Under the pieces are notes generated by a model. It was given only the letters and a program-made list of their open reading frames with translations, was not told where the DNA came from and searched no databases. This document shows positions 8,865-60,783 of a stretch of 64,000 nt of DNA, in pieces. Origin of the DNA: an uncultured Bdellovibrionales bacterium (lineage in GTDB: Bacteria > Patescibacteriota > Minisyncoccia > Moranbacterales > DUUL01); assembly GCA_964346295.1 (NCBI GenBank), contig CAYFUG010000001.1:20325-84324 (forward strand), written 5' to 3'. Position numbers and translations under genes: made by a program. Every line of letters begins with the position of its first letter. Within the stretch, counting starts at the first letter, position 1.

Positions 8865-9166
8865 CTGGGGCTCATACCATCGTTAGTTAAATTCTATGCT
8901 TATTATAGGCTTAAATCAAAAACTTTGAGTAAGAGCCTACTTGAAAAATCCAAGGAAGAAAGATGCGAGCGAGAGAATATGAAATTGAAGATAATTCCTC
9001 TTGTCTGAGTAGTTTAGATTTTTATCTGCAATCTTGTGAATCCTTGGAGCAATATTTAGCTAAAGAATCAAGCTGCGAGTCAGGAATTATCTTCAATTTC
9101 ATATTCTGGAGCGAGATCATCAATTCCAAAATCATTATTGACTTCAAAAAAATCCTTTTTTCAATG

Positions 9167-9766: not shown

Positions 9767-9852
9767 CTCCCTACTCCTTCTAGTTCTTAGAGCCTGTTTC
9801 AAAAATCGCTTTCGCAATGAAATTTTTAAATTTTTAGCAAAAGATTAGTCCT

Positions 9853-9957
9853 TCAGATTTTGAGTGAATCTTAGAGGGCAACCGAGTATCAAAGCGAGCC
9901 GCGCTAAAAGAAAAATACTGCAAGTAAGACGCCAGGGCTTCGACAGCGAAATTCGCC
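9853..9957 (+). repeat. Probable degenerate copy G of the dispersed repeat
   Basis: gattttgagtgaatcttagagggcaaccgag...gcgagccgcgc...gacagcgaaattcgcc resembles copy B 5' and 3' modules. Confidence 0.35.
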
Positions 9958-9979
9958 AAAACATTAAGACTCCCAACCA

Positions 9980-25625: not shown

Positions 25626-25627
25626 AA

Positions 25628-27658: not shown

Positions 27659-27738
27659 TTTTTTCTACTTTTTATTTTCTAATCACAATCTTAAAGGCTT
27701 CTTCATTCCACTCAAAAAGCCTTGCTTTGTTATTGAAT

Positions 27739-41513: not shown

Positions 41514-42002
41514 TTAAGATTCTGTTTTAAAACGAGCTTCAATAAGGTCAAAAATTTCTTCTGCTCCAAATTGCATTTCTTCTCTTTTTAAACTTTCTAG
41601 CTTAACCCAGCGAGGTTTTTCGCATTCATCTTCTTGATCCACCTGATCATCCGGTAAAAGCTCTGCTGTTTTAGGTTTGCAATTATAATAAAAGGCTAAG
41701 TTATGATAAGCCGCATCCAAGGGTTCATAATAAAAAAACGCCTCTTTAAAGGTAAGTAACTCCTCAACCTCAATTTCGATTCCCGCTTCCTCTCTGACCT
41801 CTCTTTTCATCCCTTCTTCAACTCTCTCGCCCAATTCCACTCCCCCGCCTGGAAACCAATATCTTCCAGTAGTTTTAGTTTTTAACAACAAAATTTCGTT
41901 CTTTTTGTTGACAACCACTGCATGAGCCGCCGGCCTAAAAACTAGCTTTTCTCGAGGAATCAATTTCTTTCCTCCGGTCAAAGTATCACATTTTATCAGC
42001 AT
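41514..42002 (-). CDS. Nudix hydrolase
   Basis: GGGVELGERVEEGMKREVREEAGIE Nudix box. Confidence 0.8.
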   Translation of the reverse strand: MLIKCDTLTGGKKLIPREKLVFRPAAHAVVVNKKNEILLLKTKTTGRYWFPGGGVELGERVEEGMKREVREEAGIEIEVEELLTFKEAFFYYEPLDAAYHNLAFYYNCKPKTAELLPDDQVDQEDECEKPRWVKLESLKREEMQFGAEEIFDLIEARFKTES

Positions 42003-42415: not shown

Positions 42416-42588
42416 GCAGCTTCGCTAGCCAAGGCGAGCAATCTAGCTAAAAATTTCCCTGGTCTCTAAATGACTGTTGCAATCCTAATTGTAACTTTCT
42501 CAACAATCAAAGTCCAGCGGAAATTTTTGGTTTTTTAAAAAATAGCTTCCGACGCCTCAAGCTATAAAATTTTAGCAACCAAAACTAA

Positions 42589-42706
42589 GAATTGCGAATT
42601 TGAGGAAATTTCTAGGCAAAGTCGAGGCTTTGCGTGAGCCGTACTGAAAGGTACGGTGAATGCGAAACACAGACTTTAACAACGAAATTTCCCAAAAGCG
42701 CAATTC
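42589..42706 (+). repeat. Dispersed intergenic repeat, copy A (between DUF5320 and DUF134 genes)
   Basis: TIR gaattgcg/cgcaattc; core tctaggc...gaggcttt...ccgtactgaaaggtacggtgaa...aacaacgaaatttccc. Confidence 0.7.
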
Positions 42707-42718
42707 TCTCGCAAAACC

Positions 42719-43000
42719 ATGCCCCGACCCCGCAAACATCATCGCCTCTGTTTCCAACCCAAATCCTATTATTTTAAACCTCAAGGCCTCCCCTTGCGCA
42801 ATTTGCAAGAAATCACTCTCAAGTCAGAAGAAATTGAAGCGTTTAAGCTCAAGCACTACGATCAACTAGACCAGCACCAAGCCGCCCATCAAATGAACAC
42901 TTCTCAAAGCACCTTCCAAAGAATCCTTTCTCGCGCTCAAAGTAAAATTGCCTCGGCCTTAGTGGAAGGCTCCGCTTTAAGAATCGAAGAAAAAAGTTAA
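42719..43000 (+). CDS. DUF134 (UPF0251) predicted DNA-binding protein
   Basis: MPRPRKHHRLCFQP N-terminus and sigma-70 region-4-like HTH (TSQSTFQRILSRA). Confidence 0.7.
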   Translation: MPRPRKHHRLCFQPKSYYFKPQGLPLRNLQEITLKSEEIEAFKLKHYDQLDQHQAAHQMNTSQSTFQRILSRAQSKIASALVEGSALRIEEKS

Positions 43001-43431
43001 AATTGAAGCGGATCAAATCCCTGCTTAAACAAATTTTCTTGAGGCACGAATAAGGGACTAGGGAATTTCTCTCGAGCCCACTCAAACCACTCCCACTTCT
43101 CACACTTATCTGGTTCACATACTGCTACTTTTCCGGAGGCATAGCCCGCTACCATGATAATAGTGATGTAATGTTTGTCTTCTTTTTCAAAAATATCGTT
43201 GGTAGCAGTTCCAAAGCGCAAGTTTTCAATCTCGATTCCCGCTTCTTCGCGTGTCTCCCGCCGGGCACATTCTTCCCAGCTTTCGCCAAATTCCAAATGC
43301 CCACCTGGAAAGCACCAACTCCCGTCTCCGTGAGAGTTTTTGCGCTTTCCCAAAAGCACCTTCCTATCTTTGAGGACGCAAACTCCCAGGCCTACTCTTA
43401 CTTGTTTTTGTTGATTTTGGGTTTCTGACAT
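42997..43431 (-). CDS. Nudix hydrolase (MutT-like)
   Basis: GGHLEFGESWEECARRETREEAGIE. Confidence 0.8.
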   Translation of the reverse strand: MSETQNQQKQVRVGLGVCVLKDRKVLLGKRKNSHGDGSWCFPGGHLEFGESWEECARRETREEAGIEIENLRFGTATNDIFEKEDKHYITIIMVAGYASGKVAVCEPDKCEKWEWFEWAREKFPSPLFVPQENLFKQGFDPLQF

Positions 43432-43649: not shown

Positions 43650-43801
43650 AAAACTTCCAAATTTGAGTGAAGCTCTAGGCGACGCCGAGGCTTTGGCTGA
43701 CCTGTCCCATTTAGCTTTAGCGGTGCGGGAGCCGTACTGTTTGGTACGGTGAAGACAAAACGCAGGCGGCAACAACGAAATTTACCGGATTTGGAAGTTT
43801 T
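43650..43801 (+). repeat. Dispersed intergenic repeat, copy B
   Basis: TIR aaaacttccaaat/atttggaagtttt; core aatttgagtgaagctctaggc...gccgtactgtttggtacggtgaa...aacaacgaaatttacc. Confidence 0.7.
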
Positions 43802-43804
43802 AAG

Positions 43805-44839
43805 CTAAAACTGGCGAAGAAACCGCAAATCCCCACTCTTAAACAATCGAATATCATCAATTTTATGTTTCATCATCGCTAGCCGCTCAATTCCAAATCC
43901 CCAAGCGAAGCCTTGATATTTACCCTTAGGATAACCGGCCGCCTCAAACACTTTTTGATTGACCATTCCGGCTCCGCCCACTTCTAACCAACCAGAATTT
44001 TTGCAGCCCCGACAACCCTTACCACCACACATCGTACAAGAAATATCAAATTCAAAACTGGGCTCGGTGAAAGGAAAGTAACTAGGGCGCAATCGGATTT
44101 CCAAATCTTGTCCAAAAAACACCGAAAAGAACTGCTGGGCGATATTTTTAAAATGGGCCACTGAAACATCTTCGCCTACTACTAAGGCCTCAAATTGATA
44201 CAGCGTATGCTCGTGAGTAGCGTCGGTGGCTTCATTACGAAAAGCCCGCCCGGGAATAATAATCCGAAAAGGCGGCTGATTTTGCTGCATGTAACGCACC
44301 TGGGTGTTAGAGGTGTGGGTCCGCAGCAATAAACGATCTCGCTCATTCTTCTTGTCAATAGTTTGCTTGACCCAAAAAGTATCCTGCATATCTCGCGCCG
44401 GGTGATCGGCCGGCACATTGAGAGCCGAGAAGTTATACCACTCATTTTCAACTTCCGGGCCATCCGCCACCTCAAAACCTAAGGTGGTGAAAATTTCCTC
44501 AATCCGCCGCTGCGTTTGAGTGAGAATATTCAAGCGTCCTTGTTCCTGCTTTTGACCAGGAGCAGTCACATCAATCCAGTCTTGCTCCTTAACTAAACTT
44601 TCTAATTGCCGCTTTTGTTCCTCAATTAAATCACTCAATTCTTGCTTGACCTGATTGGCCAAGGATCCGATTTTCTTCTTCTCCTCTCCGGAAAGATCTT
44701 TTAGTTGACGCAAGACAAGTGTCAGCTGCCCCTTCCGGCCTAAGTAAAAAACCCGGGATTTTTCCAAAGCTTCCTCAGTCAAGGCTTCTTTGATGTTTTT
44801 TTGAGCCGCTTGTTTAATTTTCTCAATTTTTTTCTGCAT
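43805..44839 (-). CDS. pheS: Phenylalanyl-tRNA synthetase alpha subunit
   Basis: FPFTEPSFE, GFGIERLAMM motifs. Confidence 0.95.
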   Translation of the reverse strand: MQKKIEKIKQAAQKNIKEALTEEALEKSRVFYLGRKGQLTLVLRQLKDLSGEEKKKIGSLANQVKQELSDLIEEQKRQLESLVKEQDWIDVTAPGQKQEQGRLNILTQTQRRIEEIFTTLGFEVADGPEVENEWYNFSALNVPADHPARDMQDTFWVKQTIDKKNERDRLLLRTHTSNTQVRYMQQNQPPFRIIIPGRAFRNEATDATHEHTLYQFEALVVGEDVSVAHFKNIAQQFFSVFFGQDLEIRLRPSYFPFTEPSFEFDISCTMCGGKGCRGCKNSGWLEVGGAGMVNQKVFEAAGYPKGKYQGFAWGFGIERLAMMKHKIDDIRLFKSGDLRFLRQF

Positions 44840-45580: not shown

Positions 45581-45715
45581 GGCTTTGGTTGTTATCCAAA
45601 AGATTATTCTGCACTAAATGTCAAGGCAATTTCAACACTTTCTACTCTTCCTAAATTATAACATTTTTAATGAAAAAAGTCAAGGAAAAACAGTCTCTAG
45701 CAACCGAAATCAAGG

Positions 45716-45830
45716 CTTTCTCGCTTTAGAAAAGTTCTAGGCGCGACTGAGCACCGAAGCGAGGCGTACTGAGAGATACGGCGAACGAGGCGTGGAAGTC
45801 GCAACAACAAAATTTTCAAAGCGAGGAAGT
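45716..45830 (+). repeat. Dispersed intergenic repeat, copy C (abuts tyrS stop)
   Basis: ttctaggcgcg...gcgtactgagagatacggcgaa...gcaacaacaaaattttcaaagcgaggaagtcc. Confidence 0.65.
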
Positions 45831-45831
45831 C

Positions 45832-47040
45832 CTAAAACTCCAGTTTCCGATAATTCCGCTTGCCCACCTTCAAAATCCTACCTTGCCAATCAGCGCTAAC
45901 TTCCACGCTTGGATCCTTCAAATCTTTACCCGCTAATTTCACTCCGCCTTGCTTAATCAGCCGCTTGGCTTCACTTTTACTAGGCGCTAATTGGCTAGAG
46001 GCTAACAGTTCCACTAGGCTGGTTCCAGCCTTAACTTTGAGCTCCTCAATTTCTTCCGGGGCCTCTTTTTTCTGGACCGTCCGTTCAAAATGAGCCTGGG
46101 CCTGTTCTGCCGCCTGTTGACTTTGGTTAATTTTGACGACTTCAAAAGCCAAGCGTTTTTTAGCTTCCATTGGCTCCAACTGAATAATCTGCTCAATTTC
46201 TGACTGAGGAATTTGCGTGCACAGCTCCAAAGCCCGCTCGATTACGCCGTCATCCCAGCTCATCACCCGGCCAAACATGTCTTCTGGCGCCTGATCCAAA
46301 AATACTGCGTTGCCCTCGCTCTTACCCATTTTTTTACCCTGATCATCCGCCAAAAGCTTGAGAGTCATTACAAACTTTTCTTTGTTCTTCAGGCTCCTTA
46401 ATAAATCTCGCCCGCACATCATATTGAACATCTGGTCGTTGCCGCCCACTTCCAAGTCCACATCCATCGCCACGCTGTCGTAGCCCTGCACTAAGGGGTA
46501 GAGAAATTCGTGCAAATAAATCGGCTTATCACTCTGGAGACGCTGTTGAAACATCTCTCGCGCCAACATCTGCTGCACCGTAAAATTAGAAGCGAGTTCG
46601 ATCACTTCTTTAAAGCTCAGTTTGTCATTCCACTCGCTATTGTGCTTAACTTGAGCCGGATTGTCGCCGGCAAAATCTAAATAACCGCTCGCTTGAGCCT
46701 GGTAACTCTTGCTGTTAGCCAAAACTTCTTCTCTGGTGAGCTTTTTGCGGACTGATTCTTTGTCGGTGGGATCGCCGATCATGCCGGTAAAATCGCCTAT
46801 CAAAAAAATCACTTCGTGGCCTAATTTTTGAAACTGGGCCAATTTGTTAATCTGAATGGCGTTTCCGATATGCAAAGAAGCGGCCGTGGGATCAAAGCCG
46901 CAGTAAAGTCGCAGCCGCTCACCCTTCAGTAGCTTCTTTTTTAAAGTCTCTTTATCAGGATAGATCTGCTCTACCCCGCGAGTTAATAATTCTTCAATCT
47001 GAGCTTCCTCAGTGATAGTTTTCGCCATAGTAAACAACAT
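45832..47040 (-). CDS. tyrS: Tyrosyl-tRNA synthetase with C-terminal S4 domain
   Basis: HIGN (SLHIGNAIQ), KMSKS (KKMGKSEGN). Confidence 0.95.
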   Translation of the reverse strand: MLFTMAKTITEEAQIEELLTRGVEQIYPDKETLKKKLLKGERLRLYCGFDPTAASLHIGNAIQINKLAQFQKLGHEVIFLIGDFTGMIGDPTDKESVRKKLTREEVLANSKSYQAQASGYLDFAGDNPAQVKHNSEWNDKLSFKEVIELASNFTVQQMLAREMFQQRLQSDKPIYLHEFLYPLVQGYDSVAMDVDLEVGGNDQMFNMMCGRDLLRSLKNKEKFVMTLKLLADDQGKKMGKSEGNAVFLDQAPEDMFGRVMSWDDGVIERALELCTQIPQSEIEQIIQLEPMEAKKRLAFEVVKINQSQQAAEQAQAHFERTVQKKEAPEEIEELKVKAGTSLVELLASSQLAPSKSEAKRLIKQGGVKLAGKDLKDPSVEVSADWQGRILKVGKRNYRKLEF

Positions 47041-48160: not shown

Positions 48161-49033
48161 TTACTCGAAGATCACTGTCTTATTGCCCTTGGTAAAAACC
48201 CGGTCCTCACTCGCCAAGCGTACCGCCTTGATAAGTACTGATTTTTCTACTTCCTGACCGGCCTGGCGCAATTTAGCCACATCAAAAGCATGACTAACTC
48301 TGGCAATATCCTGAGCGATAATCGGACCTTGGTCCAGCTTCTCCGTTACCCAGTGAGCAGTGGCACCAATAATCTTCACTCCTCGCTGATAAGCCTGCCG
48401 ATAGGGATTAGCCCCCACAAAAGCCGGCAAAAAAGAGTGGTGAATGTTGATGATCCGACCCGGAAATTCCCTCACGAAAGCCGCCGAGAGAATCCGCATG
48501 TACTTGGCCAAAACCAAAAAATCCGGTTGATATTTTTTCACCGCCGCTAAGGCCGCCGCCTCTTGCTCCTGCTGGCTCCGACTCTCATGAGAGGCTAATT
48601 CAAATGGTAGTTGAAATTTCTCCACTAGCTCCCGCAACTGTTCGTGATTACTAACCACCGCTACCACTTCAATATTAAGCTGATTGTAAGCATTTTGCAC
48701 TAGTAGTTCCGCCAAGCAATGATGCTCGGTAGTAGCCAAAACTACCACCCGTTTTTTACCACTCGCCGGCATTCTCACCTGAGCCTTTTTCAGCAAAACC
48801 TCTCGCACTTTTTTCAAAAGCTCCTTGCCCTTCCCTCGAGCCAGATCTGCCTCAAATTCGGTGCGCATAAAAAAATGAGCCGTTTTTGCTTCAGCCTCAT
48901 TAGCCTCAGAAACTTCCACAAACTCTCGGTTGGAGATGATATTGCCGCCAAACTCCAAAAGCGCTCCCGTCACCGAGTGAATAATCCCCTTTTGATCGGG
49001 ACAATCGATTAGCAAAATATGTGATTGGATCAT
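48161..49033 (-). CDS. purU: Formyltetrahydrofolate deformylase
   Basis: N-terminal ACT domain; HHSFLPAFVGANPY formyltransferase motif. Confidence 0.9.
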   Translation of the reverse strand: MIQSHILLIDCPDQKGIIHSVTGALLEFGGNIISNREFVEVSEANEAEAKTAHFFMRTEFEADLARGKGKELLKKVREVLLKKAQVRMPASGKKRVVVLATTEHHCLAELLVQNAYNQLNIEVVAVVSNHEQLRELVEKFQLPFELASHESRSQQEQEAAALAAVKKYQPDFLVLAKYMRILSAAFVREFPGRIINIHHSFLPAFVGANPYRQAYQRGVKIIGATAHWVTEKLDQGPIIAQDIARVSHAFDVAKLRQAGQEVEKSVLIKAVRLASEDRVFTKGNKTVIFE

Positions 49034-49062
49034 GAGCTACACTCTTTAGAATTAACTAGAAA

Positions 49063-50124
49063 CTAGAAATTACCCGATATTTCAAAGTTAATCAAGTTGG
49101 GATATTCTTTTTTAGCTTTCTTTAGCTCCAAAATCAACCTCTTCCAAGCTGGCATTCTATGAGGATTTTCGGGGTCAAAATTCTCACAGTATGCCTCAAT
49201 GAAAACCTCCTCGGGAATCCCAGCACCATTTTCATTTATTAGCTTAAGAAGATTGAACCGCTCCTCAACATAGCTACCTCCAGACCCAGAAAGTTTTATC
49301 GCTATCTCTTCAGTAACCGCCTCATTTAAAGCATTAAACTTCCTCTTTGAAAGACCACCAGTTCTTTCGAATTTGGTTTTAATGCTAAGGCCTGATTTAG
49401 TCTCGATTAAATTTCCAGATTCAAATCCCTCAAATTTAGTTTCTTTGAGGATTCTCCCTCCAACCACAGCATGCACTAACTCATGGAAAACTGCATGCCT
49501 TTGATCTTGCTCTTTGACAGTAGTAGAAATTCTTACAACCCAGTCTCTGTAACTAGCATATTTATCGTTAACCCCGTCTGTTAAAATTATAGGGGTATCT
49601 TCAATCCTTCTAGCTAAATCATCTTGGCTTAGGGTTAAATAGCCATCATCTATTAATTTAACTGCTTCCCTAGTAAAATCTTTCTTGAAATCATCAGCTC
49701 TCTCCTTGAATTCAGCCTCTTTTATTTTAAAGATTTTGATATGATTTTCAAAGATGCCTAGCAATAGTTCATCATCTATCGCCCCCCCCTCTAAAAGATC
49801 GCTTATAATCTCCGGAGTAAAATCGCCCTCGGCCACCCCTCTCAAGGAAATTAGCCTTTCTTTTAAAGCTGGTTCTCTTAAAGCCTCTTCGAATAATTGA
49901 AAATAATTCTCTGAATGATATTTATCTTTTAAGTAACTAACAAGGTATTTGCGCTCAAAATCGAAGGGGTTTTCTAGTTCTAATCCCTCTCTATGCCGCT
50001 TGTAAGAATCGACTTCCCACTCTCCAAAAGCCCTACCAGAAAGATTGGTAGTATTTTTTTCTTTCTTTTCTTGGTAAAATGGGTCGCCCTCTGAAACATA
50101 ACGAACAAACTTTTCTTTTACCAT
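49063..50124 (-). CDS. Hypothetical cytoplasmic protein with HExxH motif (possible metallopeptidase)
   Basis: AVFHELVHAVVGG. Confidence 0.4.
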   Translation of the reverse strand: MVKEKFVRYVSEGDPFYQEKKEKNTTNLSGRAFGEWEVDSYKRHREGLELENPFDFERKYLVSYLKDKYHSENYFQLFEEALREPALKERLISLRGVAEGDFTPEIISDLLEGGAIDDELLLGIFENHIKIFKIKEAEFKERADDFKKDFTREAVKLIDDGYLTLSQDDLARRIEDTPIILTDGVNDKYASYRDWVVRISTTVKEQDQRHAVFHELVHAVVGGRILKETKFEGFESGNLIETKSGLSIKTKFERTGGLSKRKFNALNEAVTEEIAIKLSGSGGSYVEERFNLLKLINENGAGIPEEVFIEAYCENFDPENPHRMPAWKRLILELKKAKKEYPNLINFEISGNF

Positions 50125-50158
50125 TCCTTTAAAAAATTAGAAAATTATCTCCCAAAAA

Positions 50159-50554
50159 TTATCTCCTCTCCGCCTGAAACTTCTCCCAATATCTATCCAA
50201 CCGCCCCTCCTCATCGCCACACTTAGGATCCATCTGCATATTCACTCCCACTTCATCCAACCAAGTTTCGTAATAGGCGTCCAAAAACTGAGTCCCTTGC
50301 TTAGTAACATCATTTCTTACTAAACTCACCTCCAAATTAAGCTCCCGCTCGCCCAACCACTGCTGACCGGATTTCTTCAAAAGCCCCTTTTCGGCCAACC
50401 ACCGCAACACAAAATAAATGTGCCGCGAAGCATCCTCCAAGCTCAAAGAATCCCCGTCATAATACCAACGAGCCTTGTCCCACACCTGGGCCTTAACCGG
50501 CTTAGTGCTGGGCATTCTCTTGAAACGAGAAGTTATTTTTTTCCAAAGCTTCAT
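50159..50554 (-). CDS. Hypothetical protein (131 aa)
   Basis: ORF co-oriented upstream of 49063..50124. Confidence 0.4.
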   Translation of the reverse strand: MKLWKKITSRFKRMPSTKPVKAQVWDKARWYYDGDSLSLEDASRHIYFVLRWLAEKGLLKKSGQQWLGERELNLEVSLVRNDVTKQGTQFLDAYYETWLDEVGVNMQMDPKCGDEEGRLDRYWEKFQAERR

Positions 50555-50628
50555 GGGATCTTTTGGTTGATTTTTCGCCTCTGAAGTTATAAACTGATTA
50601 TAACTTTCTTTTTATTTTTTTCAAAATA

Positions 50629-50940
50629 ATGACAATTACCGACTTCAACGATCCTCTCCTCTTAACTCTCCTAACTTTCTACCTACTCATCAATCTTCTC
50701 TCTTTCTCGTTGATGGTTTTTGACAAAGGCCGCTCTCAAAGAGAAGGTCAGCGCCGCATCAGTGAAAAGGATCTTTTTTTCTGGGCCATTAGCCTGGGTG
50801 CTTTAGGCGTACTAGCCGGCATGCGCTTTTCTCGGCACAAAACCCGCAAATGGCAATTCTCCCTGGGAATTCCCTTGGCCTTGGTGCAAAATTGGGCTTT
50901 GCTGTGGTTGGCGATTGGCTGGCTCAAATTATTCAATTAA
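50629..50940 (+). CDS. DUF1294-family small membrane protein
   Basis: MVFDKGRSQREGQRRISEKDLFFWAISLGALGVLAGMRFSRHKTRKW. Confidence 0.6.
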   Translation: MTITDFNDPLLLTLLTFYLLINLLSFSLMVFDKGRSQREGQRRISEKDLFFWAISLGALGVLAGMRFSRHKTRKWQFSLGIPLALVQNWALLWLAIGWLKLFN

Positions 50941-51076
50941 CTCTCAGAACAAAACAAACCTGGCAAGTCTTCGAGGCCTGCCAGGTTTGTTATGAAAAGT
51001 AATCTATTTTTAAGAAAAAGCCAGGGGAGACTTTTTCTGAATTTATCTTAGGCTAGTAGCCAGTAGAGAAGCCTAA

Positions 51077-51330
51077 CTAGCCGTTAGGTCCCTCCTTACA
51101 TTTTTCGTATGCGTCGGAACCTGGATCATCCGTAAGCTCCTTCCCATAATCGAAGCAACTCTCCACATCTGGATGATCTTCCTGGCAACCTTCCACACAA
51201 GCCTGATAGTAACCTGATAGTAAGTGGTATTGCCATCAGCCTCAGTGGCGCAATCGTCATAACAAACACAGATTGGAGGAGTATTTTCCTCCGCCATCGC
51301 AGGATTTGTCGTTGCCAGACCCAAAGCCAT
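51077..51330 (-). pseudogene. Small Cys-rich acidic ORF whose frame is broken by an 11-bp tandem duplication (cctgatagtaa x2 at 51202-51223)
   Basis: Removing one repeat unit restores an 80-aa, 7-Cys protein MALGLATTNPAMAEENTPPICVCYDDCATEADGNTTYYQACVEGCQEDHPDVESCFDYGKELTDDPGSDAYEKCKEGPNG; weak SD aaggac upstream. Confidence 0.35.
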
Positions 51331-51479
51331 TGTTGTCCTTGATAAATAAATAACGGACCACTTTAATGAATATTTCTGTTTGAGTTACTTGACAAATATT
51401 CCCCTCCATGCTAGCTTGTGATGCCAACGCTTAAGGGGAGCGTTGCAAACATGCACTTTTATCAAAAAAGGAGGAAAGA

Positions 51480-51608
51480 ATGGCAAGAAAGATCGGGCTT
51501 ATCTTAGCCCTACTGGCACTGGCGGTGGCACTAGCGGGATGCGGTGGGTACGTACCAACTGGTCAGGCCCTACGGTCCCCACGAAAGAGGTATCAGCCGA
51601 CCGGATAG
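51480..51608 (+). CDS. 42-aa lipoprotein precursor in a GC-rich islet (not in ORF track)
   Basis: Strong SD aaaggagg 5 nt upstream; MARKIGLILALLALAVALAGCGG lipobox. Confidence 0.4.
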   Translation: MARKIGLILALLALAVALAGCGGYVPTGQALRSPRKRYQPTG

Positions 51609-51710
51609 CCACAAGTTCTTTGACACCAGCCAATGCGGCCAACCCTTTCAGACTCACAACGCCTAAATCAATTTAAAATTGACAAGCTTTTAAGGTCTTA
51701 AGAGGTCTTA

Positions 51711-51764
51711 ATTAAAAGTAGGAGCGCGATTAATTTTAACGACCGCAGGTGGTCGCGCCCCTAC
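51711..51764 (-). terminator. Intrinsic terminator downstream of dnaK
   Basis: gtaggagcgcg...cgcgcccctac long hairpin with U-run on minus strand. Confidence 0.55.
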
Positions 51765-51797
51765 TGACAAAAAATCTATCTCGATTAAGCTCAGCCA

Positions 51798-53753
51798 CTA
51801 CTTCTTCTCATCATCCTTTTTGTCATCCTTGCTGTCCTTCTCATCTTTCTCATTCTTCTCTTCTTCTACTTCCGCATCTTTTACCTTGGAATCGCCCTCC
51901 TGTTCTCCACCTTCTGCCTGACCTTCTGCTGACTTGTTCTCTGCTTCTGCTGCCGCTTGATACAACTCTTGGCCAATCTTTTGAGCCTCAGTAGAAAGCT
52001 CTTCGGTAGCCTTTTTGATCGCCTCCAAATCATCGCCGTCTTTAACTTTCTTGAGGGCTTCTACTTTCTCTTCTACCGGCTTTTTCTTTTCCGCATCGAT
52101 TTTCTCCCCCGCATCTTTGAGAGATTTCTCAGTAGAATAGACCAGGCTATCCGCCATATTTTTGGCTTCCACTAATTCCGCTTTTTTCTTATCTTCTTCG
52201 GCGTGGGCCTCGGCCTCCTTTTTCATCTTCTCCACTTCCTCCTCGCTCATATCGCTAGAAGCCTCGATTCGAATCGATTGTTCCTTGTTAGTAGCCTTAT
52301 CTTTAGCTTTTACCTGCAAAATTCCGTTGGCGTCGATGTCAAAAGACACTTCCACTTGGGGCACTCCTCGAGGCGCCGGTGGAATTCCGTCCAACATAAA
52401 GCGTCCCAAGGTTTTGTTGTCAGCCGCCATCTTACGCTCGCCCTGGAGAACATGAATCTCCACGCTAGGCTGGTTATCAGCCGCGGTAGAGAAAATCTGG
52501 CTCTTAGAAGCTGGAATAGTGGTATTACGCTCAATTAAAGGGGTGGAAACACCGCCCATAGTTTCAATTCCTAAGGTCAAAGGAGTAACATCCAGCAGTA
52601 GCACATCCTTAACATCCCCTTGCAAGACACCCCCTTGAATGGCCGCTCCCATCGCTACTACTTCGTCAGGATTAACACCAGTAGAAGGCTTTTTGCCAAA
52701 GAACTCTTCCACCTTCTTTTGCACTAGCGGCATCCGAGTCATTCCTCCCACCATTACCACTTCATTAATATCACCAAATTTCACTCCTGCGTCTTCTAGA
52801 GCTTTTTTGCAAGGCTCCAAGGAACGATCCACTAGATCGCCCACCAGCTCTTCTAGCTTGGCACGGGTAATTTTCATTACTAAGTGTTTAGGGCCTTCCG
52901 CTCCGGAGGTAATAAAAGGCTGATTGATCTCAGTTTCTTGAGAGGTAGACAGCTCGATCTTGGCCTTCTCGGCCGCTTCTTTAATGCGCTGCAACGCCAA
53001 AGGATCTTTAGAAAGATCCACTCCTTCTTGTTTTTTAAACTCCTCTAAAATCCAATCGATGATCACCTGATCAAAATCATCTCCTCCTAAGTAAGTGTCT
53101 CCGTTGGTAGATTTTACTTCTACGGTGTCTTCCGCTACTTCTAAAATGGAAATATCAAAAGTTCCTCCCCCTAAATCGTATACTGCGATTTTCTCGTCTT
53201 TCTTTTTGTCAAAACCGTAAGCTAAGGCCGCTGCCGTCGGCTCGTTAATGATCCGCTTGACTTCTAGACCGGCAATTTTTCCGGCATCTTTAGTGGCTTT
53301 GCGTTGAGCATCATCAAAATAGGCCGGGACGGTAATTACTGCCTCGGTGATAGTTTCGCCCAATTTAGCCTCGGCATCTGCTTTGAGTTTTTGCAGAACC
53401 ATGGCACTAATTTCTGCCGGGCGATAGTCCTTACCATTCATTTCGATATTAACCGCTCCCTTTTTTCCTTCTTTCAGTTTGAAAGGCATCTTTTCCGCCG
53501 CCGACTTTACTTCTTTATCCGAAAAATTCCGCCCGATTAAGCGCTTAGCAGAAAAAATGGTCTTTTCCGGGTTAGTTACCGCCTGCCGTTTGGCCAAGAG
53601 GCCCACCAGGCGTTCTCCGGATTTATTGATGGCCACCATAGAGGGCGTGGTCCGATTCCCTTCTTTGTTTTCGACAATTTCGGGCTTGCCGCCAGTCACC
53701 ACTGCCATGGCACTGTTGGTTGTCCCTAGGTCAATACCTAAAATTTTTGACAT
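51798..53753 (-). CDS. dnaK: Chaperone DnaK (Hsp70)
   Basis: [16 protein letters not shown], acidic C-terminal tail. Confidence 0.95.
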
Positions 53754-53880
53754 AAGTTTGTAAATTAATTAAGTTATTTAGAAAAGAATTCGACTACATA
53801 AAAAACTGCGGAAACTGCCTGAGTAAGGGTCAAAGACAAAATAATCCACCCCAACCTACTATTCACCCTCTCCAGGCTAT

Positions 53881-54075
53881 TCATTTCTTGATTTGCTCCT
53901 TAACAACTTTCTCAAAATCATCAACAGATTCATTTAATTTTTCGAAAGAACACTTCAATCTATAGCTTACACTTGATGATATTGCCAGAGAAATATTCCC
54001 GGGACCTCTTGTAACGATATCTCTAATTATCTTCTTATCCTCTTCTTTCAGATCTTTCATGAATTCTTCTTTCAA
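53881..54075 (-). CDS. Hypothetical 64-aa protein between CIRCE/repeat E and dnaK
   Basis: ORF only. Confidence 0.35.
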   Translation of the reverse strand: MKEEFMKDLKEEDKKIIRDIVTRGPGNISLAISSSVSYRLKCSFEKLNESVDDFEKVVKEQIKK

Positions 54076-54103
54076 GCTCCTAAACTTTACTTTTAGTATT
54101 TTT

Positions 54104-54247
54104 TAGGGCTTTCAAACTTCAGGAAATTTTTACCTGCCTGCCGGCAGGCAGGGGCGCAAGCGAGGCTTGGTGCGAGTCGTACTGAAAGGTACGATGAGCG
54201 AGTAGCGGAGAGTTTAACAACAAAATTTTCAAAATTTGGGAGTCCCT
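54104..54247 (+). repeat. Dispersed intergenic repeat, copy E (lies between CIRCE operator and the 64-aa gene/dnaK)
   Basis: cctgcctgccggcaggcagg palindrome; tcgtactgaaaggtacga hairpin; gagcgagtagcggagagtttaacaacaaaattttcaaaatttgggagtccc. Confidence 0.75.
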
Positions 54248-54259
54248 CTTAATAAAAAA

Positions 54260-54286
54260 TTAGCAGTCTAGGTAGTAGACTGCTAA
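54260..54286. promoter_or_regulatory. CIRCE-like HrcA operator upstream of the 64-aa gene/dnaK
   Basis: TTAGCAGTC-N9-GACTGCTAA perfect inverted repeat (consensus TTAGCACTC-N9-GAGTGCTAA). Confidence 0.7.
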
Positions 54287-54439
54287 AATTATAGCGCATT
54301 CTTGAATTGTGTCAAATCTACAACCTTAGACCAAAAAGAGGCAGGGAAAACCACCTCTTTAAGGTCTGATTGAAATCAACTAAGGCTACTTATCTAGCAC
54401 CAGAAAATCGGATCACTGAAAAACCGGACGACCCGATAG

Positions 54440-54871
54440 CTATTTCTTCTCCACTCCCACCTTAATCTTCTTAGGCTTCATTTCTTCTGCCTTAGGCAAG
54501 GTGATTTTCAAGACACCGTCTTTATAATCGGCTTTGGCCTGATCACCTTTTACCGTCATCGGCAAAATCATGCTCCGGGTAAAACTTCCCAGCCGCACTT
54601 CCCGTCGATAAAAATCCTCTTGCTTGGTTTCCTTTTCTTCTTCGCGAGAACCGCTCACGGTAAGGACATCGCTTTCCACTGTAATATCAGCTTTGTCCGG
54701 ATCAATACCCGGCAAATCCAGTTCGGCAATCACATTGTCCTTATCTTGATAGATATTGGCAGCCGGAACAAAATCTCCGGCGAAGGTATCCTCATCCCAA
54801 CCTCTCATCAGGTCGCGGAAAGGTTCCCATTGCATTAAATGTCTTCGCATAAATTTGGATCCTCCTGTCAT
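54440..54871 (-). CDS. Small heat-shock protein (Hsp20/alpha-crystallin family)
   Basis: Alpha-crystallin-domain pattern, 143 aa. Confidence 0.9.
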   Translation of the reverse strand: MTGGSKFMRRHLMQWEPFRDLMRGWDEDTFAGDFVPAANIYQDKDNVIAELDLPGIDPDKADITVESDVLTVSGSREEEKETKQEDFYRREVRLGSFTRSMILPMTVKGDQAKADYKDGVLKITLPKAEEMKPKKIKVGVEKK

Positions 54872-55002
54872 CGGAGCCCACTAATTTTAGACTTCGGTGA
54901 CACTTGGATGATTAAAGATTAATTTCAAATTCTAAATTCTAAATTTTAAAACAATTTTGAATAATCTAATGTCTGAAGATCCGAATAATTTGCTTTCTGG
55001 GG

Positions 55003-55344
55003 CTATTTTAGAGAATGGAAGATTTTGCTAAAAATCATAGTTAATTCTCGAGATTCTTTCCATAGTGTCCTTAATTCAGATCTCTTGTCCTTCTCAACTT
55101 CTGCTAACATTTCTAGCCAGTATTCAGTTTCACTAATTTCTTTTCTGCAGATGCTAATTTTATTACGGAAATCTTTTTTAGAACAACCAGCATTAGCTTC
55201 TTTATAGTTAGCTCCAACACTTAGGGCTGATCTAATAAGTTGGTCAACAATGTTTCTGTTTAGGTGGCTTAGCTGAACAGCTCTCACAAGGCTTAAAATG
55301 CTTCTTCCAAATTTCTTAGTTCTTTCTTCTAAGTCATATTTCAT
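55003..55344 (-). CDS. Four-helix-bundle protein (23S rRNA intervening-sequence protein family)
   Basis: RSALSVGANYKEANAGCSKKDFRNKISICRKEISETEYWLEM matches family core. Confidence 0.6.
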   Translation of the reverse strand: MKYDLEERTKKFGRSILSLVRAVQLSHLNRNIVDQLIRSALSVGANYKEANAGCSKKDFRNKISICRKEISETEYWLEMLAEVEKDKRSELRTLWKESRELTMIFSKIFHSLK

Positions 55345-55441
55345 AGCAATAGAGATATGATAATAGCGCAGCTATTTAAAATTAATTTATTTGGTATTGA
55401 GGTATTGTTTTGAAATTTGAAATTTATAATTCGAAATTAGC

Positions 55442-56794
55442 TCAGCCGGCTTCCACGCTCACCGCCCTTATCACCTTTCCATTCAAGCGATAGCCCTTCT
55501 TTAAAATCTTGCCTACTTGATCGCCTTTCCCGGCCACTACTTCGTGAATATTAGAATCAATAGCGTCTCCTGGTTGAGTAGCAATCTCTTCTACTCCTCG
55601 TTCTTCTAGTGTTTTTAGGAGTTGATTTTTAATGTGCATAATTCCTGTTACCCAAGGATTGTCTTGCTGATCCTCCGGCACAAAAGCCACTGAGGCCTCA
55701 AAGTTATCCACCACCGGCAGCAGTCCCAAAATCAAATCTTCCGTGGCGTACTTGCGAAATTCTTCTTTTTCCTTTTCTGCTCGTTTACGAAAATTATCCA
55801 GTTCCGCCGCCGCTCTTTTCCAGCTATTCTCTGAATCCAAAAGCTCCAGCGTTCGAGCAGCCTCCTTGAGAGCCTTAAACAAATGAATCTCCATAAAATT
55901 ATCAGCAGCCGGTTTGCCAATTTTTTCTAAAGCCTCTTTAAAGCTGAGCCACTCTAGGCTTTGGTGCTCATTTTCATCAACTCGAGCCAATTCAGGATTG
56001 CCCGTAAAAACCAGATAGTAAGGAGTTTTATAGCCATAAAATCCGTTCCACTGATCAGCGGTGATATCAGGAACATAAATGACTGGGCCTATCTCGATAC
56101 CACTCAAACCCGCTTCCTCCTCGACCTCCCTCTTGACCGCATCCTCTAAAAACTCTCCAGCGCCCAAAGATCCGCCCGGAATATCGTAACTACCCGGATA
56201 AAACAAGTCGCTATCGGAGCGCTTTAACAACAAGACTCGATTTTGATTATCCACCACCACTGCTCGCACTCCTACTCGAAAAAACTTTTGGTCCTTCATT
56301 CGCCGAGCTGCACCAATCAAAGTCTCCCTCTTCTCATTCTCAAAGCCATTTTTTTTATTTAAAAGGTTAATGGCTTCTTCTAAGTTCAACCACTGAAATT
56401 CACTATGCTCTCGCTTGTTCAACTTGACTTTCTGAGGATTCTGACCTTCTTTTAAAAATGTCAAATAGCGCAAACCTCTTTTTTCGTCTTGAAATTGCCG
56501 GCTCTCTTTGGGAAACTCGCTAACTTTAATCACCGTGTCTAATTTTACTTCCAGGCCGGTTTCTTCTCGCACTTCTCTTTTCACTGCCTCCTCCACCGAT
56601 TCTCCTTCATCTACATGGCCACCCGGCAAATCCCATTTTTCGGCGTTCCAAGGAACTTTTTTAGAGCGCTTCAATAGCAGCACTTGCTCATTCTCTCGAT
56701 CTACTATCACTGCCTTGACTGTTAAAGACATCGGACGAGAAAATCGATCTGCTTGCATTTGTTGTTGAGTTTTATCGGAATCTTTTTTCAGCAT
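55442..56794 (-). CDS. grpE: Fusion protein: two tandem Nudix hydrolase domains followed by a GrpE nucleotide-exchange-factor domain
   Basis: Nudix boxes GGHVDEGESVEEAVKREVREETGLEV and GGSLGAGEFLEDAVKREVEEEAGL; C-terminus AAELDNFRKRAEKE...AIDSNIHEVVA...GYRLNGKVIRAVSVEAG (GrpE); single uninterrupted 450-codon frame. Confidence 0.85.
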   Translation of the reverse strand: MLKKDSDKTQQQMQADRFSRPMSLTVKAVIVDRENEQVLLLKRSKKVPWNAEKWDLPGGHVDEGESVEEAVKREVREETGLEVKLDTVIKVSEFPKESRQFQDEKRGLRYLTFLKEGQNPQKVKLNKREHSEFQWLNLEEAINLLNKKNGFENEKRETLIGAARRMKDQKFFRVGVRAVVVDNQNRVLLLKRSDSDLFYPGSYDIPGGSLGAGEFLEDAVKREVEEEAGLSGIEIGPVIYVPDITADQWNGFYGYKTPYYLVFTGNPELARVDENEHQSLEWLSFKEALEKIGKPAADNFMEIHLFKALKEAARTLELLDSENSWKRAAAELDNFRKRAEKEKEEFRKYATEDLILGLLPVVDNFEASVAFVPEDQQDNPWVTGIMHIKNQLLKTLEERGVEEIATQPGDAIDSNIHEVVAGKGDQVGKILKKGYRLNGKVIRAVSVEAG

Positions 56795-56975
56795 AGATAA
56801 ATAAATAGTTTAGAGGTTAAATTTGAGACTTTCTTTTTCACTAGAAGTCATCCTATTGGTCATCCCCGCCTTCGAGAGAATGACGGCTTGTTAGGCTCTG
56901 AAAAAAATCCTAAGTTATCATCATCCAAACTCTTCTTCTGCAGGATTCAGCAACGAAGCGCACCAAAAATGGAAG

Positions 56976-57689
56976 TCACCCCAAGAAAAGTTTGCGCACA
57001 AAATCAATCAGGCTCTTATTTCGCCCGTACTGCATCCGCTTGGGTCCAATAATCGCAATAATGCCCGAGTCTCCGTCTTCGGAGTGATAAGAAGAGGCGA
57101 TCATGGAACAACTCCGAATCTCCTCAATCGGGTTTTCTCCACCGATATAGATTTTAGGACCTTCTTCGCTTTCTAAGTCGGCTACTATTCGCTCTACATT
57201 CTCATCAATTAAATCCAAGGTGGCCGAGATTCTGGAAAATTCCCCTAATTGCTGAAATTCCGGATCTTCTAACAAAGTGTGCATCCCAAAGTCATAAAAC
57301 TCGCCGGTTTTAGGCAATCCACTCAACGCCAAGCAGCGCGAGGAGGCCGAAAGCGTTTTGGCTAGCGTCCTAGACAGCCGAACATTCTGAGCCTTGAGTT
57401 TCAGCATCTCTACCTGTAAGCGTTTTTGATCTCCAGGAGAGAGCCTGCCCGGATCTAAAAAGTTATCTACAAAATAGCGGTAACCTCGATCAGAGGGGAT
57501 TCTCCCTGCACTAGTATGAGGCTTGATCAAAAACCCTTCCTTTTCCAGATTAGCCAATTCATTCCGTAAGGTCGCTGAGGAATATTCCGGAAGATACTTT
57601 TCTTTTAATAAAGAGCTGCTCACTGGGGTTGCCGTCAAAGTATACTCTTGCACTACCGAAACCAATACTTCCCCTTGTCTTTCTGTTAA
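56976..57689 (-). CDS. hrcA: Heat-inducible transcription repressor HrcA (start probably at the internal MLTERQ; track ORF extends to 57731)
   Basis: MLTERQGEVL N-terminus typical of HrcA, winged-helix N-domain. Confidence 0.85.
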   Translation of the reverse strand, partial: LTERQGEVLVSVVQEYTLTATPVSSSLLKEKYLPEYSSATLRNELANLEKEGFLIKPHTSAGRIPSDRGYRYFVDNFLDPGRLSPGDQKRLQVEMLKLKAQNVRLSRTLAKTLSASSRCLALSGLPKTGEFYDFGMHTLLEDPEFQQLGEFSRISATLDLIDENVERIVADLESEEGPKIYIGGENPIEEIRSCSMIASSYHSEDGDSGIIAIIGPKRMQYGRNKSLIDFVRKLFLG

Positions 57690-57950
57690 CATAAAAACTA
57701 AAATAATCAATTTAATGCAGTCATTAAGCAACTTCTTAGAGCCTGTTTAAAATAACAGCATCCATCCAATGCCAGGCTTTCAAAAGCCTGGGGCGATAAC
57801 CGAAGGGGGATAAGAGGCGCCGATTCTTTCTTAAAGCGGAGAGATTGCATCTCGCCCAGAGAGAAACCGTTAAAGCTTAAATGGTTCTGATTTTCAGTCT
57901 TTTCAGAAGCCGGTTCCGAAAAGAATTTGAGGGAATTCAGAAAAATCACT

Positions 57951-57977
57951 TTAGCACTCTCACCCCCCGACTGCTAA
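57951..57977. promoter_or_regulatory. CIRCE-like HrcA operator upstream of hrcA
   Basis: TTAGCACTC-N9-GACTGCTAA (one mismatch to consensus right arm). Confidence 0.65.
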
Positions 57978-58131
57978 CTATATTGTAACGCAAAATCACC
58001 GGCTGTCAAGAGGCGAAAAGCTCTTAGTCAAAAGTCCCCAAGGTAGACTAAAAACTACAAACTGGCCAATATCCACTGGCAAATCACAGTCCTCATAAAA
58101 TCAGTAAAACATAGTTCAGACAATGCCCAGA

Positions 58132-58172
58132 CAAAAAAAGAGGCCGGGCCGGAGAATTCCGGCTCGGCCTCT
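58132..58172 (-). terminator. Strong GC-rich intrinsic terminator (bidirectional hairpin)
   Basis: gaggccgggccggagaattccggctcggcctc with A7 on plus / U7 on minus. Confidence 0.7.
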
Positions 58173-58191
58173 TTAGTGGGGGCAGTTTCTT

Positions 58192-58317
58192 CTAAGGAAG
58201 GCATGTGCTTAGCCCTCCTACAGCTTCGGAAAAGCACTTCCCGATAAAAACGCTTGAGAAGTGCAAAAAAATTAAAGCCAAAAGAGAAATCACCACTCCC
58301 GCCAAAACATACTTCAT
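58192..58317 (-). CDS. 41-aa hydrophobic peptide gene with strong SD and its own terminator (not in ORF track)
   Basis: SD gagaaaggagaagg-ATG; MKYVLAGVVISLLALIFLHFSSVFIGKCFSEAVGGLSTCLP; terminator at 58132-58172. Confidence 0.4.
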   Translation of the reverse strand: MKYVLAGVVISLLALIFLHFSSVFIGKCFSEAVGGLSTCLP

Positions 58318-58677
58318 ACCTTCTCCTTTCTCGGCCCGCCGTTGCGAGCCGTTTATTGTTGGCGTTAGGTGACATTGTCCCTTGCTTTTCCTAATTTGTC
58401 AACCCCAGTTATCCCCCAGCTGACAAGCTGACTCTCAAAATTGCTCGCTGTCTTTTCAGAAAGCCTCTGCTCAGCTTTCTTACCAGCCTTCTTCTCAGTC
58501 TTCCTCTCAACCTTCCTCTTAGTCTTCCCTGTTGATAAATATTCTTGACAATCACTAGCTTGTCTGCTACCTTGACCACCGTTGGAATGGCCCAAGCTTG
58601 GGTCAATTGAACCGTCCAGGCGCCTAATGTCATCGGGCGCTGGACTAAACAAATCCTCACACGAAAGGAGGAAAAAG

Positions 58678-59058
58678 ATGGCAAAACGGAAATTGGAGGC
58701 TTGGTGCCCCTGGACGGCCCTGGCGCTAGTGGCGCTGCTGCTGGTGGCACTGACTTGCGGCATAGCCTGCGAGAAGAAGGTCCAGGCTGCCCCAGTGCCC
58801 GCTGGGCACATCAACGCCCCGGCAGCCACCGGCGCCCAAAACTGCGCTGCCTGCCACACCGCGCCTCTACTCTCAGGAATAGACTGGGGCGAACGGGACG
58901 GAAGAGACGGAAGCGGAGACTGCCCTCCGCCGCCTCCATCTGACATCACCGGAAACGAGCCCCCCGTCATGTTAGGGGACAGTGGCGGTGGCGACGGTGA
59001 TCGCTGGAGCCCGCCGAATTCGCCCTTTCCAACAAGTCCGCCGAGAGCAAAAAGTTAA
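58678..59058 (+). CDS. 126-aa GC-rich lipoprotein with a CxxCH motif and Pro/Gly/Asp-rich tail; the minus-strand ORFs here (58365..58970, 58409..58750) are likely GC-driven artefacts
   Basis: SD aaaggagg; MAKRKLEAW...LVALLLVALTCGIAC lipobox-like signal; NCAACHTAP; followed by terminator 59068-59114. Confidence 0.5.
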   Translation: MAKRKLEAWCPWTALALVALLLVALTCGIACEKKVQAAPVPAGHINAPAATGAQNCAACHTAPLLSGIDWGERDGRDGSGDCPPPPPSDITGNEPPVMLGDSGGGDGDRWSPPNSPFPTSPPRAKS

Positions 59059-59067
59059 ATAGGCGGC

Positions 59068-59114
59068 AACACCCCGTTCGGAGAACCACTTTCCGAGCGG
59101 GGTGGTTTTTTTAT
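59068..59114 (+). terminator. Intrinsic terminator after the GC-rich lipoprotein gene
   Basis: caccccgttcgg...ccgagcggggtg hairpin plus T8. Confidence 0.7.
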
Positions 59115-59384
59115 TTTAAGCCCCACCTTCTCTCTGTATCTCTCCTATTACTTGCCTCCTCCTCTCCCCTTGACAATTTCCACCATTGAGCTATTTTTAA
59201 AGGCTTTCTGGGGAGTTTTTCCCTCCTTTTATCCTCGGAAAGCAAGCGCCTTGATCACCTCAACGAGGGAGGTCGAGGCGCTTTTTCTTTGCCTATCATT
59301 CGCCTACAAAAAACAAGTTCTTGCCAAAAAGCCAAAAAGTTACTCTCTCAAATCCTTCAAATCCCCTTCCGGCTAAAGCTGCCC

Positions 59385-59412
59385 TTGTCATTTTTTCCTC
59401 TTTCGCTATAAT
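59385..59412 (+). promoter_or_regulatory. Near-consensus sigma-70-type promoter (TTGTCA-16-TATAAT)
   Basis: ttgtca ttttttcctctttcgc tataat. Confidence 0.5.
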
Positions 59413-59418
59413 TACTCT

Positions 59419-59521
59419 TAGCGATTCACAAGCAGCTCTGCAAATCAGATCTGCGAACTGAAGCAAACAGAACATTAAAATATCTACCATACTAGACAAC
59501 GGGAGGGGGTTGTTGTTTTTT
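59419..59521 (+). ncRNA. Candidate about 100-nt small RNA or terminated leader transcript between promoter and a short terminator
   Basis: Promoter at 59385-59412; terminator-like acaacgggagggggttgttgtttttt at 59496-59521; no ORF with SD on plus strand. Confidence 0.25.
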
Positions 59522-60036: not shown

Positions 60037-60783
60037 ATGAAAAAAATTCTAGCTAGTTTTGTAGCCCTTTTAGCTGCTTTGGCAGTTACTGGCTACGGAA
60101 CTTACGCCCTTTGGAGCGACACCGAGACATCCACCGGAAACACCATTACCGCCGGAAGTTTAGACTTATCAGTGCCCGAAACTTTCATTGCCGTAGCTGC
60201 TGTTTCTGCTGACTTTGACGGCGACGGAACCGACGACTACACCACTGCCGTTTACCCAGGAGTAGGTTACTTTGGAACCGCTGACGGACCTCAAGCTGAT
60301 TCCATGATTTCCTTAACAAGCGACACTGCCACTTATGGAACTTACAATGGTGACGGAATGGGCGCCAAAAACTATGACTATGTTCCTGTTATTAACAACG
60401 GAACTATTGATGGACAGTTAACAGTAGAAGTTGGTGCTGTCTCAGATGAAGAGAACGGCCAAACCAGCGCTGAACTAGTACCTGGAGTAGACGGAACTCC
60501 TAATGTTGGGGAGCTTAGCCCATATGTAGAAATTCGCTTTCACATTGATGTAGACGGCGATGAAACCTACGAAGACACTACCGGATGGCAAGCAATCTCC
60601 AGTGCTCCTAATACCTCAACCAATCCACTTTGGAATTTTGCCAATACCGCAATTATTCCGGCTCAAAACTCTGCTAATCCTGCTCGTCTTATGATGGAAT
60701 ACCGAGTAGACAGTGCTGCTGGCAATGACACCATGACCGACACTGTAGATTTTGAACTTATCTACGATTTCCAACAAATCTAG
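60037..60783 (+). CDS. TasA/camelysin-like secreted protein with SipW-cognate-class signal peptide
   Basis: MKKILASFVALLAALAVTGYGTYALWSDTETSTGNTITAGSLDLSV. Confidence 0.8.
   Translation: MKKILASFVALLAALAVTGYGTYALWSDTETSTGNTITAGSLDLSVPETFIAVAAVSADFDGDGTDDYTTAVYPGVGYFGTADGPQADSMISLTSDTATYGTYNGDGMGAKNYDYVPVINNGTIDGQLTVEVGAVSDEENGQTSAELVPGVDGTPNVGELSPYVEIRFHIDVDGDETYEDTTGWQAISSAPNTSTNPLWNFANTAIIPAQNSANPARLMMEYRVDSAAGNDTMTDTVDFELIYDFQQI

Follow-up and report, generated by a model that had tools for sequence, protein, structure and literature searches.

Two palindromes in the chaperone locus of an uncultured Candidatus Moranbacteria bacterium (Patescibacteria/CPR) are very probably operators of the repressor HrcA (CIRCE elements), which would control two chaperone transcription units by promoter occlusion, with HrcA binding and the transcription start sites deduced from the DNA sequence. 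In the window, the whole stretch of 64 kb that we analyzed, the genes of this locus all lie on the minus strand. The window belongs to a metagenome contig of 97.5 kb (JGI 3300012002, Ga0153774_1000055), and its closest genomes are those of Candidatus Moranbacteria/Patescibacteria. Its features, in the direction of transcription, are as follows.

57982-58009, minus strand: promoter of the hrcA unit, TTGACA-16-TACAAT, 11/12 consensus bases, rank 2 in 49000-59500
57693-57950, minus strand: hrcA leader, 258 nt from operator to ATG, the longest in the comparison set
56976-57692, minus strand: hrcA, 238 aa, Pfam HrcA PF01628 at 74 bits
55442-56794, minus strand: Nudix-Nudix-GrpE fusion gene, 450 aa
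55003-55344, minus strand: gene of the '23S rRNA IVP' family, encoding a four-helix-bundle protein, inside unit 1
54440-54871, minus strand: hsp20
54335-54437, minus strand: two terminator-like hairpins after hsp20, at 54437-54407 and at 54360-54335 (AAAGAGGUGG...CCUCUUUUU), z = -4.1
54288-54315, minus strand: promoter of the dnaK unit, TTGACA-16-TATAAT, 12/12 consensus bases, rank 1 in 49000-59500
53881-54060, minus strand: small ORF of '64 aa', the N-terminal part of a frameshifted gene for a tail-anchored membrane protein of ~100 aa
51798-53753, minus strand: dnaK, HSP70, 866 bits

Both palindromes are present where the earlier note had located them. The operator of the dnaK unit (54260-54286, minus strand) reads TTAGCAGTC-TACTACCTA-GACTGCTAA on the gene strand. 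Its 9-bp arms form a perfect palindrome around a spacer of exactly 9 bp, 16 of its 18 arm bases agree with the consensus, and a run of six T follows directly. The hrcA operator (57951-57977, minus strand) reads TTAGCAGTC-GGGGGGTGA-GAGTGCTAA on the gene strand, also has a 9-bp spacer, and agrees with the consensus at 17 of 18 arm bases. Read on the plus strand, the two sites are TTAGCAGTC-N9-GACTGCTAA at 54260-54286 and TTAGCACTC-N9-GACTGCTAA at 57951-57977. The CIRCE consensus is TTAGCACTC-N9-GAGTGCTAA, and in the species studied the footprints of HrcA, which represses by steric hindrance, overlap transcription start sites (PMC7464140). Searching the 64-kb window for TTAGCASTC-N9-GASTGCTAA with up to three mismatches retrieved just these two sites, against a mean of 0.02 matches in dinucleotide shuffles of the window, none of which (0/100) held two or more. 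No further CIRCE with at most two mismatches occurs in the 78.3 kb that L122, the window and L121 together cover on the source contig, and the 9-mer half-sites have no other occurrence within the window. The motif search of the window also bore out the earlier observation that no CIRCE precedes hsp20 or Nudix-grpE.

The promoter ranks given above come from a sigma-70 consensus scan of 49000-59500 (10.5 kb), in which the two best sites are those in front of the operators. The -10 box ends 1 nt upstream of CIRCE in the dnaK unit and 4 nt upstream in the hrcA unit. Since the operators start 1-4 nt after the -10 box, transcription is predicted to start within the promoter-proximal arm. HrcA bound at either operator would block RNA polymerase, and the loss of HrcA binding upon protein-folding stress would derepress the chaperone genes. 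Unit 1, comprising hrcA, Nudix-grpE, the IVP gene and hsp20, would be autoregulated; unit 2 would comprise the small membrane-protein ORF and dnaK, with a promoter and operator of its own. That HrcA controls the chaperone units, as had been suggested from the palindromes, is in keeping with a CIRCE on the promoters of both units and with the presence of the hrcA gene.

The proposed division into one hrcA-to-hsp20 transcript and a separate dnaK unit is supported by the terminator-like hairpins and by the promoter and operator belonging to dnaK, but it is not proven. The hairpins after hsp20, whose role as terminators we infer, have short U tracts. In the consensus scan, there is no strong promoter between hrcA and hsp20, weak promoter-like sites are present within unit 1, and no promoter-like site lies on the gene strand between the dnaK operator and dnaK. 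Another terminator-like hairpin, with a T7 run, is located at ~58131-58175, ahead of the hrcA promoter. The two-unit layout thus fits the data, qualified by the short U tracts and the weak internal promoters.

We compared the locus with 27 Moranbacteria loci retrieved with HrcA (434 kb), in which the gene order hrcA, (Nudix-)grpE, (hsp20), dnaK is conserved. A CIRCE lies 20-135 nt upstream of hrcA in 26 of the 27 loci. Each of the 32 CIRCE sites in the 434 kb is located in front of a chaperone gene, which is hrcA for 26 of them, dnaK for four (L017, L019, L020 and L024) and dnaJ for two (L007 and L013). The scan for the motif that the earlier note had put forward thus yielded sites only upstream of chaperone genes, 2/2 in the 78 kb here and 32/32 in the 27 relatives. 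The G/C swap at arm position 7 pointed out in that note is likewise real, but its reading as a mark of variant operators does not hold, as the swap is a lineage polymorphism seen in 10 of the 26 hrcA operators. Position 7 is canonical in 16 of them and changed in the left arm in five and in the right arm in five, and the five nearest GTDB relatives have the left-arm (promoter-proximal) G7 half-variant, as in the hrcA operator of the window. Arm positions other than 7 are changed at just two of the 26 (L021 and L029). Given that position 7 is nearly the sole variable arm position among the relatives, the supposed variant is a normal polymorphism of the lineage, with G at this position tolerated.

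Promoter layout falls into two patterns. In L005, L006, L008, L011 and L014, TTGACA-17-TAAAAT is followed by CIRCE, as in the window. In most other Moranbacteria, the 9-bp spacer of CIRCE itself contains a -35 box TTGAC(A/G), and the -10 box follows downstream; this layout is seen in the hrcA upstream regions of L007, L009, L010, L012, L013 and L015-L031, some of which have a second promoter upstream. A close relative with 85% DNA identity (L120), found through a homolog of the small ORF, keeps the -35 and -10 hexamers of both promoters. Its hrcA operator is identical to that of the window, spacer included, and its dnaK operator has identical arms and differs at five of nine spacer bases. Such fixed arms around a drifting dnaK spacer are the hallmark of a palindrome bound by a protein. 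A separate CIRCE before dnaK is lacking in the five nearest GTDB relatives, and in three of these (L008, L011 and L014) dnaK starts 40-57 nt past the preceding gene and thus apparently belongs to the hrcA operon. This indicates that separate dnaK operators arose more than once. The operon groESL is a classic HrcA target; it was not found in the DNA examined (the window and the loci of the relatives). Within the window there is also no groEL, groES, clpB or dnaJ, and dnaJ is found in just three relatives.

We also considered whether the palindrome at dnaK is mainly, or additionally, an intrinsic terminator for read-through from hsp20, which we regard as rather unlikely. A terminator scan flags the site, with 11 pairs followed by TTTTTTATTA, and the full-length hairpin followed by U6 has a predicted folding energy of -14.7 kcal/mol (z = -6.7). 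RNA from the predicted start of the dnaK unit itself, lacking most of the left arm, folds at only -4.8 kcal/mol and would pass. Furthermore, the T-run is kept in L120 (7 T), and a T-run also follows the dnaJ CIRCE in L007 and L013. However, the arms match CIRCE at 16/18 bases and stay constant as the spacer drifts, neither of which a plain terminator needs. Operators classically lie directly after the -10 box, as this site does, and two other hairpins are already present downstream of hsp20. A dual role as operator and terminator would be compatible with our main explanation, namely that HrcA occludes the dnaK promoter at this palindrome.

The winged-helix domain of HrcA aligns with PDB 1STZ (E = 2e-17). 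The protein lacks ~100 central residues of the canonical protein, residues ~96-230 of 1STZ being represented by ~50 residues here. The short form (238 aa), with the winged-helix and the C-terminal part kept, is found in 27 of 27 Moranbacteria loci. In the absence of these ~100 central residues, dimerization and chaperone sensing may differ from those of canonical HrcA. An HrcA of this kind nevertheless has a strictly conserved operator, and it helps to define the minimal HrcA. The Nudix-GrpE fusion is present in most Moranbacteria relatives, with two tandem Nudix domains in the window and one in L120 (300 aa); two more stand-alone Nudix genes are found in the window at 41514-42002 and 42997-43431. 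The IVP-family gene inside the heat-shock operon has a similar position in L015 and is absent from most relatives.

The separation of an operator from its gene by a repeat had been taken as special to the dnaK side; the hrcA operator is distant as well, the intervening leader being the one of 258 nt listed above. The first ~165 nt of this leader are ~90% identical to L120, which exceeds the flanking coding DNA. The leader is predicted to be structured (z = -3.6), and in the predicted fold the G-rich CIRCE spacer pairs with CTCTTATCCCCC ~150 nt downstream. It has no Rfam match. An 80-aa ORF in the leader was rejected as coding, given that its frame is broken by an indel in L120 and that tblastn found no homolog.

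On the dnaK side, what had been described as a 64-aa gene is instead the front half of a frameshifted gene for a membrane protein of ~100 aa. Its one homolog is a 102-aa protein in L120, where the gene is intact. The C-terminal transmembrane part can still be read in a different frame, to ~53775. The break is a 1-nt indel in an A-rich run (AAGAAATGA), and the same break is present in an independent assembly.

Of greater value than the operators themselves is the repeat that lies between the dnaK operator and the small ORF, a well-supported, unclassified structured element with many copies and an unusual placement rule at gene ends. The family is ~125 nt in length, and more than 50 copies were found overall. 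The window contains five strong and two weak copies, on the plus strand throughout, among them the following.

9847-9975, plus strand: diverged copy, 24.6 bits, ending 4 nt before the ATG of a flippase-like gene
42587-42712, plus strand: copy A, 3' end 6 nt before the ATG of a DUF134 gene (42719-43000, plus strand)
43650-43805, plus strand: copy B, 3' end abutting the stop codon of pheS (minus strand)
45712-45837, plus strand: copy C, 3' end overlapping the stop codon of tyrS (minus strand)
54105-54250, plus strand (antisense to dnaK): copy E, covariance model score 105 bits
59907-60031, plus strand: copy F, ending 5 nt before the ATG of a 248-aa gene (60037-60783, plus strand)

Copy E had been noted between the operator and the downstream genes at 54104-54247, and the covariance model places it at almost the same limits. 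One more copy is located just outside the window (L121, 19760-19905), and another in the Moranbacteria genome L024 (7621-7745). A core-pattern scan of metagenomes led to 32 loci (L088-L119), in which the covariance model identified 45 full-length copies. The repeat is absent from the six nearest relatives (97 kb, near hrcA). Being abundant in this genome and missing near hrcA in those relatives, it has a patchy distribution. The L120 ortholog of copy E lies at 5085-5229, and the order of operator, repeat, ORF and dnaK is kept there; the element is thus no recent insertion, contrary to what its description as an insertion had implied. Copy E (54133-54152), copy G (L121, ~19789-19808) and the L120 ortholog have a 20-nt GC palindrome, CCTGCCTGCCGGCAGGCAGG, inserted at the same loop position, which defines a subfamily of the repeat. 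Copies within one genome also have stem variants in common. Both the shared insert and these stem variants point to duplication and homogenization of the repeat.

A further copy suspected by eye in the hrcA-grpE spacer is unsupported by the covariance model. The sequence in question, at 56945-56978 right after the hrcA stop codon, has ~27 nt in close similarity to the repeat's 3' arm (CAACGAAGCGCACCAAAAATGGAAGTC), with a matching 5' arm near 56825; this may be a decayed copy, and it received no covariance-model score. Two other repeat structures were noted in the window. At 8973-9112, a perfect inverted repeat of 26 bp (AGAATATGAAATTGAAGATAATTCCT with its complement) surrounds ~85 nt ahead of a thymidylate-kinase-like gene; the covariance model of the ~125-nt repeat scores it only weakly (26 bits). 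Within 23862-27671 there are three direct-repeat pairs (families D2, D4 and D5), and their common spacing of ~2.07-2.12 kb indicates a tandem duplication of a ~2-kb segment.

The fold of the repeat is supported by covariation, computed on the 45-copy alignment. Double changes are seen at 41 of 45 pairs, and the covariation score is 0.58, compared with 0.17 in shuffles. Altogether 86.8% of the alignment cells are paired, compared with 33-40% when the partners are slid. The consensus consists of a ~25-bp closing stem, a conserved AGTTCTAGGCG, an apical hairpin GAGCCGTAC-loop-GTACGGTGA and the motif AACRACGAAAT. Among the wobble cells, G-U outnumbers A-C by 133 to 46, and the excess is found in every genomic context. 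The selected fold is thus on the sense strand of the repeat, and in copy E this strand runs antisense to dnaK. No match at gathering score was obtained with Rfam in the window, and for copy E and a canonical copy there was nothing but noise at E values up to 10. A literature search on the core sequences of the repeat and on structured RNAs in CPR bacteria returned no description of it.

These data bear on what copy E does in front of dnaK. The dnaK transcript would start inside the left arm of the operator and run through the reverse complement of the 146-nt repeat and the ORF into dnaK. The earlier proposal that the repeat is co-transcribed as leader therefore stands as to its position in the leader, but the transcribed strand is the reverse complement of the structure-bearing one. 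That copy E contributes functionally to the control of dnaK, for example as an RNA stabilizer, a processing site or a thermosensor, seems improbable to us. In its favor, the order of operator, repeat, ORF and dnaK is kept in L120, and a fold of -55 kcal/mol (z = -2.3) is predicted for the leader with the reverse-complement repeat included. However, structural selection acts on the opposite strand, as judged from the G-U and A-C cells, and the same element is found beside unrelated genes in both orientations. Moreover, other Moranbacteria with a dnaK operator of their own are without it, as are the six nearest relatives, and its conservation in L120 is explained by shared ancestry at 85% DNA identity. 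Judged on these sequence comparisons, copy E appears to be a passenger that has long resided in the dnaK leader, rather than a regulator specific to dnaK.

The placement of the repeat is strongly polar. Its 3' end abuts a gene boundary in ~27 of 47 copies, and its 5' end in just two. The boundaries at the 3' end comprise ~20 stop codons of convergent genes and ~10 start codons of co-directional genes, with a tRNA end in a few further copies. The ~10 copies of the second kind end 2-18 nt before the start codon, upstream of rpsT, rplO, greA, lysS, corA and others. No fixed promoter is found upstream of the repeat (mean score 7.55 on the sense strand and 7.28 in the antisense control, with 5 and 4 strong matches, respectively), and inspection of the flanks revealed neither a target-site duplication nor a common target.

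Several known classes were tried and rejected as identities of the repeat. MITEs are marked by conserved terminal inverted repeats, a target-site duplication and a related transposase; the ends of the repeat pair but are its most variable part, and it has no duplication or linked transposase. REP elements of the REP/RAYT type are short (20-40 nt) GTAG-headed palindromes flanking a RayT gene, whereas the repeat is ~125 nt with a complex core, and no RayT homolog is present in the window or in loci other than L120. Integron attC sites have RYYYAAC and GTTRRRY end boxes, a cassette array and an integrase. There are no such boxes at the ends of the alignment, and the neighbors of the repeat are housekeeping genes (pheS, tyrS, dnaK, rpsT and tRNAs). 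An intrinsic terminator does not fit either, as flank inspection found no consistent T-run on either strand; several copies lie close to a canonical terminator distinct from the repeat. As a separate observation, L120 contains a RayT-like Y1 transposase gene (4229-5001) between hsp20 and the dnaK promoter, near copies of the repeat, and its nearest homologs are in non-CPR contigs. GTAG-headed palindromes (GTAGAGAC...GTCTCTAC) are located upstream of this gene, with one inserted in frame inside it. These palindromes are separate from the repeat and fit REP better.

We tentatively suggest, at somewhat less than even likelihood, that the repeat represents an undescribed class of structured nucleic acid, either RNA or a strand-specific ssDNA fold, in Moranbacteria and related Patescibacteria, and that it serves as a portable module at gene boundaries. 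If so, its 3' end would be set against a start codon, a convergent stop codon, a tRNA end or the dnaK operator, and it might act, for example, as a 5' scaffold fused either to the downstream transcript or to an antisense tail. Alternatively, it would be a self-propagating element with a new insertion polarity. It may accordingly be read in one of two ways, as a selfish element with fold-dependent propagation or as a host RNA module.

The repeat resembles ERIC, Correia/CREE, Rickettsia RPE and REP/BIME elements, the interspersed palindromic repeats of bacteria, in several respects. It is ~125 nt long, with ends whose pairing yields a long hairpin. Furthermore, it is intergenic, multicopy and co-transcribed with its neighbors, it is abundant in some genomes and missing from near relatives, and its copies within a genome are apparently homogenized. 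It differs from them in the strong conservation of its inner loops and apical hairpin, even between distant genomes, with helices that covary, in having no target-site duplication, conserved target or linked transposase, and in its strand-specific wobble signal and marked 3'-end polarity. With cis-regulatory leader RNAs of the riboswitch type it shares conserved internal loops framed by covarying helices, as well as the ~10 copies that end just before a start codon. Unlike these, it has no Rfam match and is followed by no common gene class, and the majority of its copies point toward the 3' end of a convergent gene.

Returning to the operators, the notion that the palindromes are chance matches or sites of another regulator, for which the two base differences from the consensus speak and nothing else, is scarcely credible in view of the motif statistics (two matches against 0.02 expected, and no others in 78 kb) and of a conservation tied to hrcA, dnaK and dnaJ. 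Both CIRCE sites are ordinary, textbook HrcA operators and do not form a new operator class. The intact HrcA-CIRCE system in Moranbacteria extends the textbook circuit to a reduced, uncultured lineage, and the comparison shows which operator position can vary, namely position 7. Compared with the HrcA-CIRCE system of B. subtilis (hrcA-grpE-dnaK-dnaJ and groESL operons), the arms match the consensus at 16-17 of 18 bases around the same 9-bp spacer, the operator lies at the transcription start (predicted here) of a housekeeping-type promoter, and hrcA comes first in its own autoregulated operon, followed by grpE. In contrast to B. subtilis, no groESL is seen in the DNA examined here, arm position 7 is G instead of C, and HrcA is ~100 residues shorter. 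Moreover, the operon contains hsp20 and an IVP-family gene, and its grpE carries two fused Nudix domains. The operators are separated from their genes by long leaders, of 258 nt for hrcA and ~500 nt for dnaK, and dnaK is split off behind a promoter and operator of its own.
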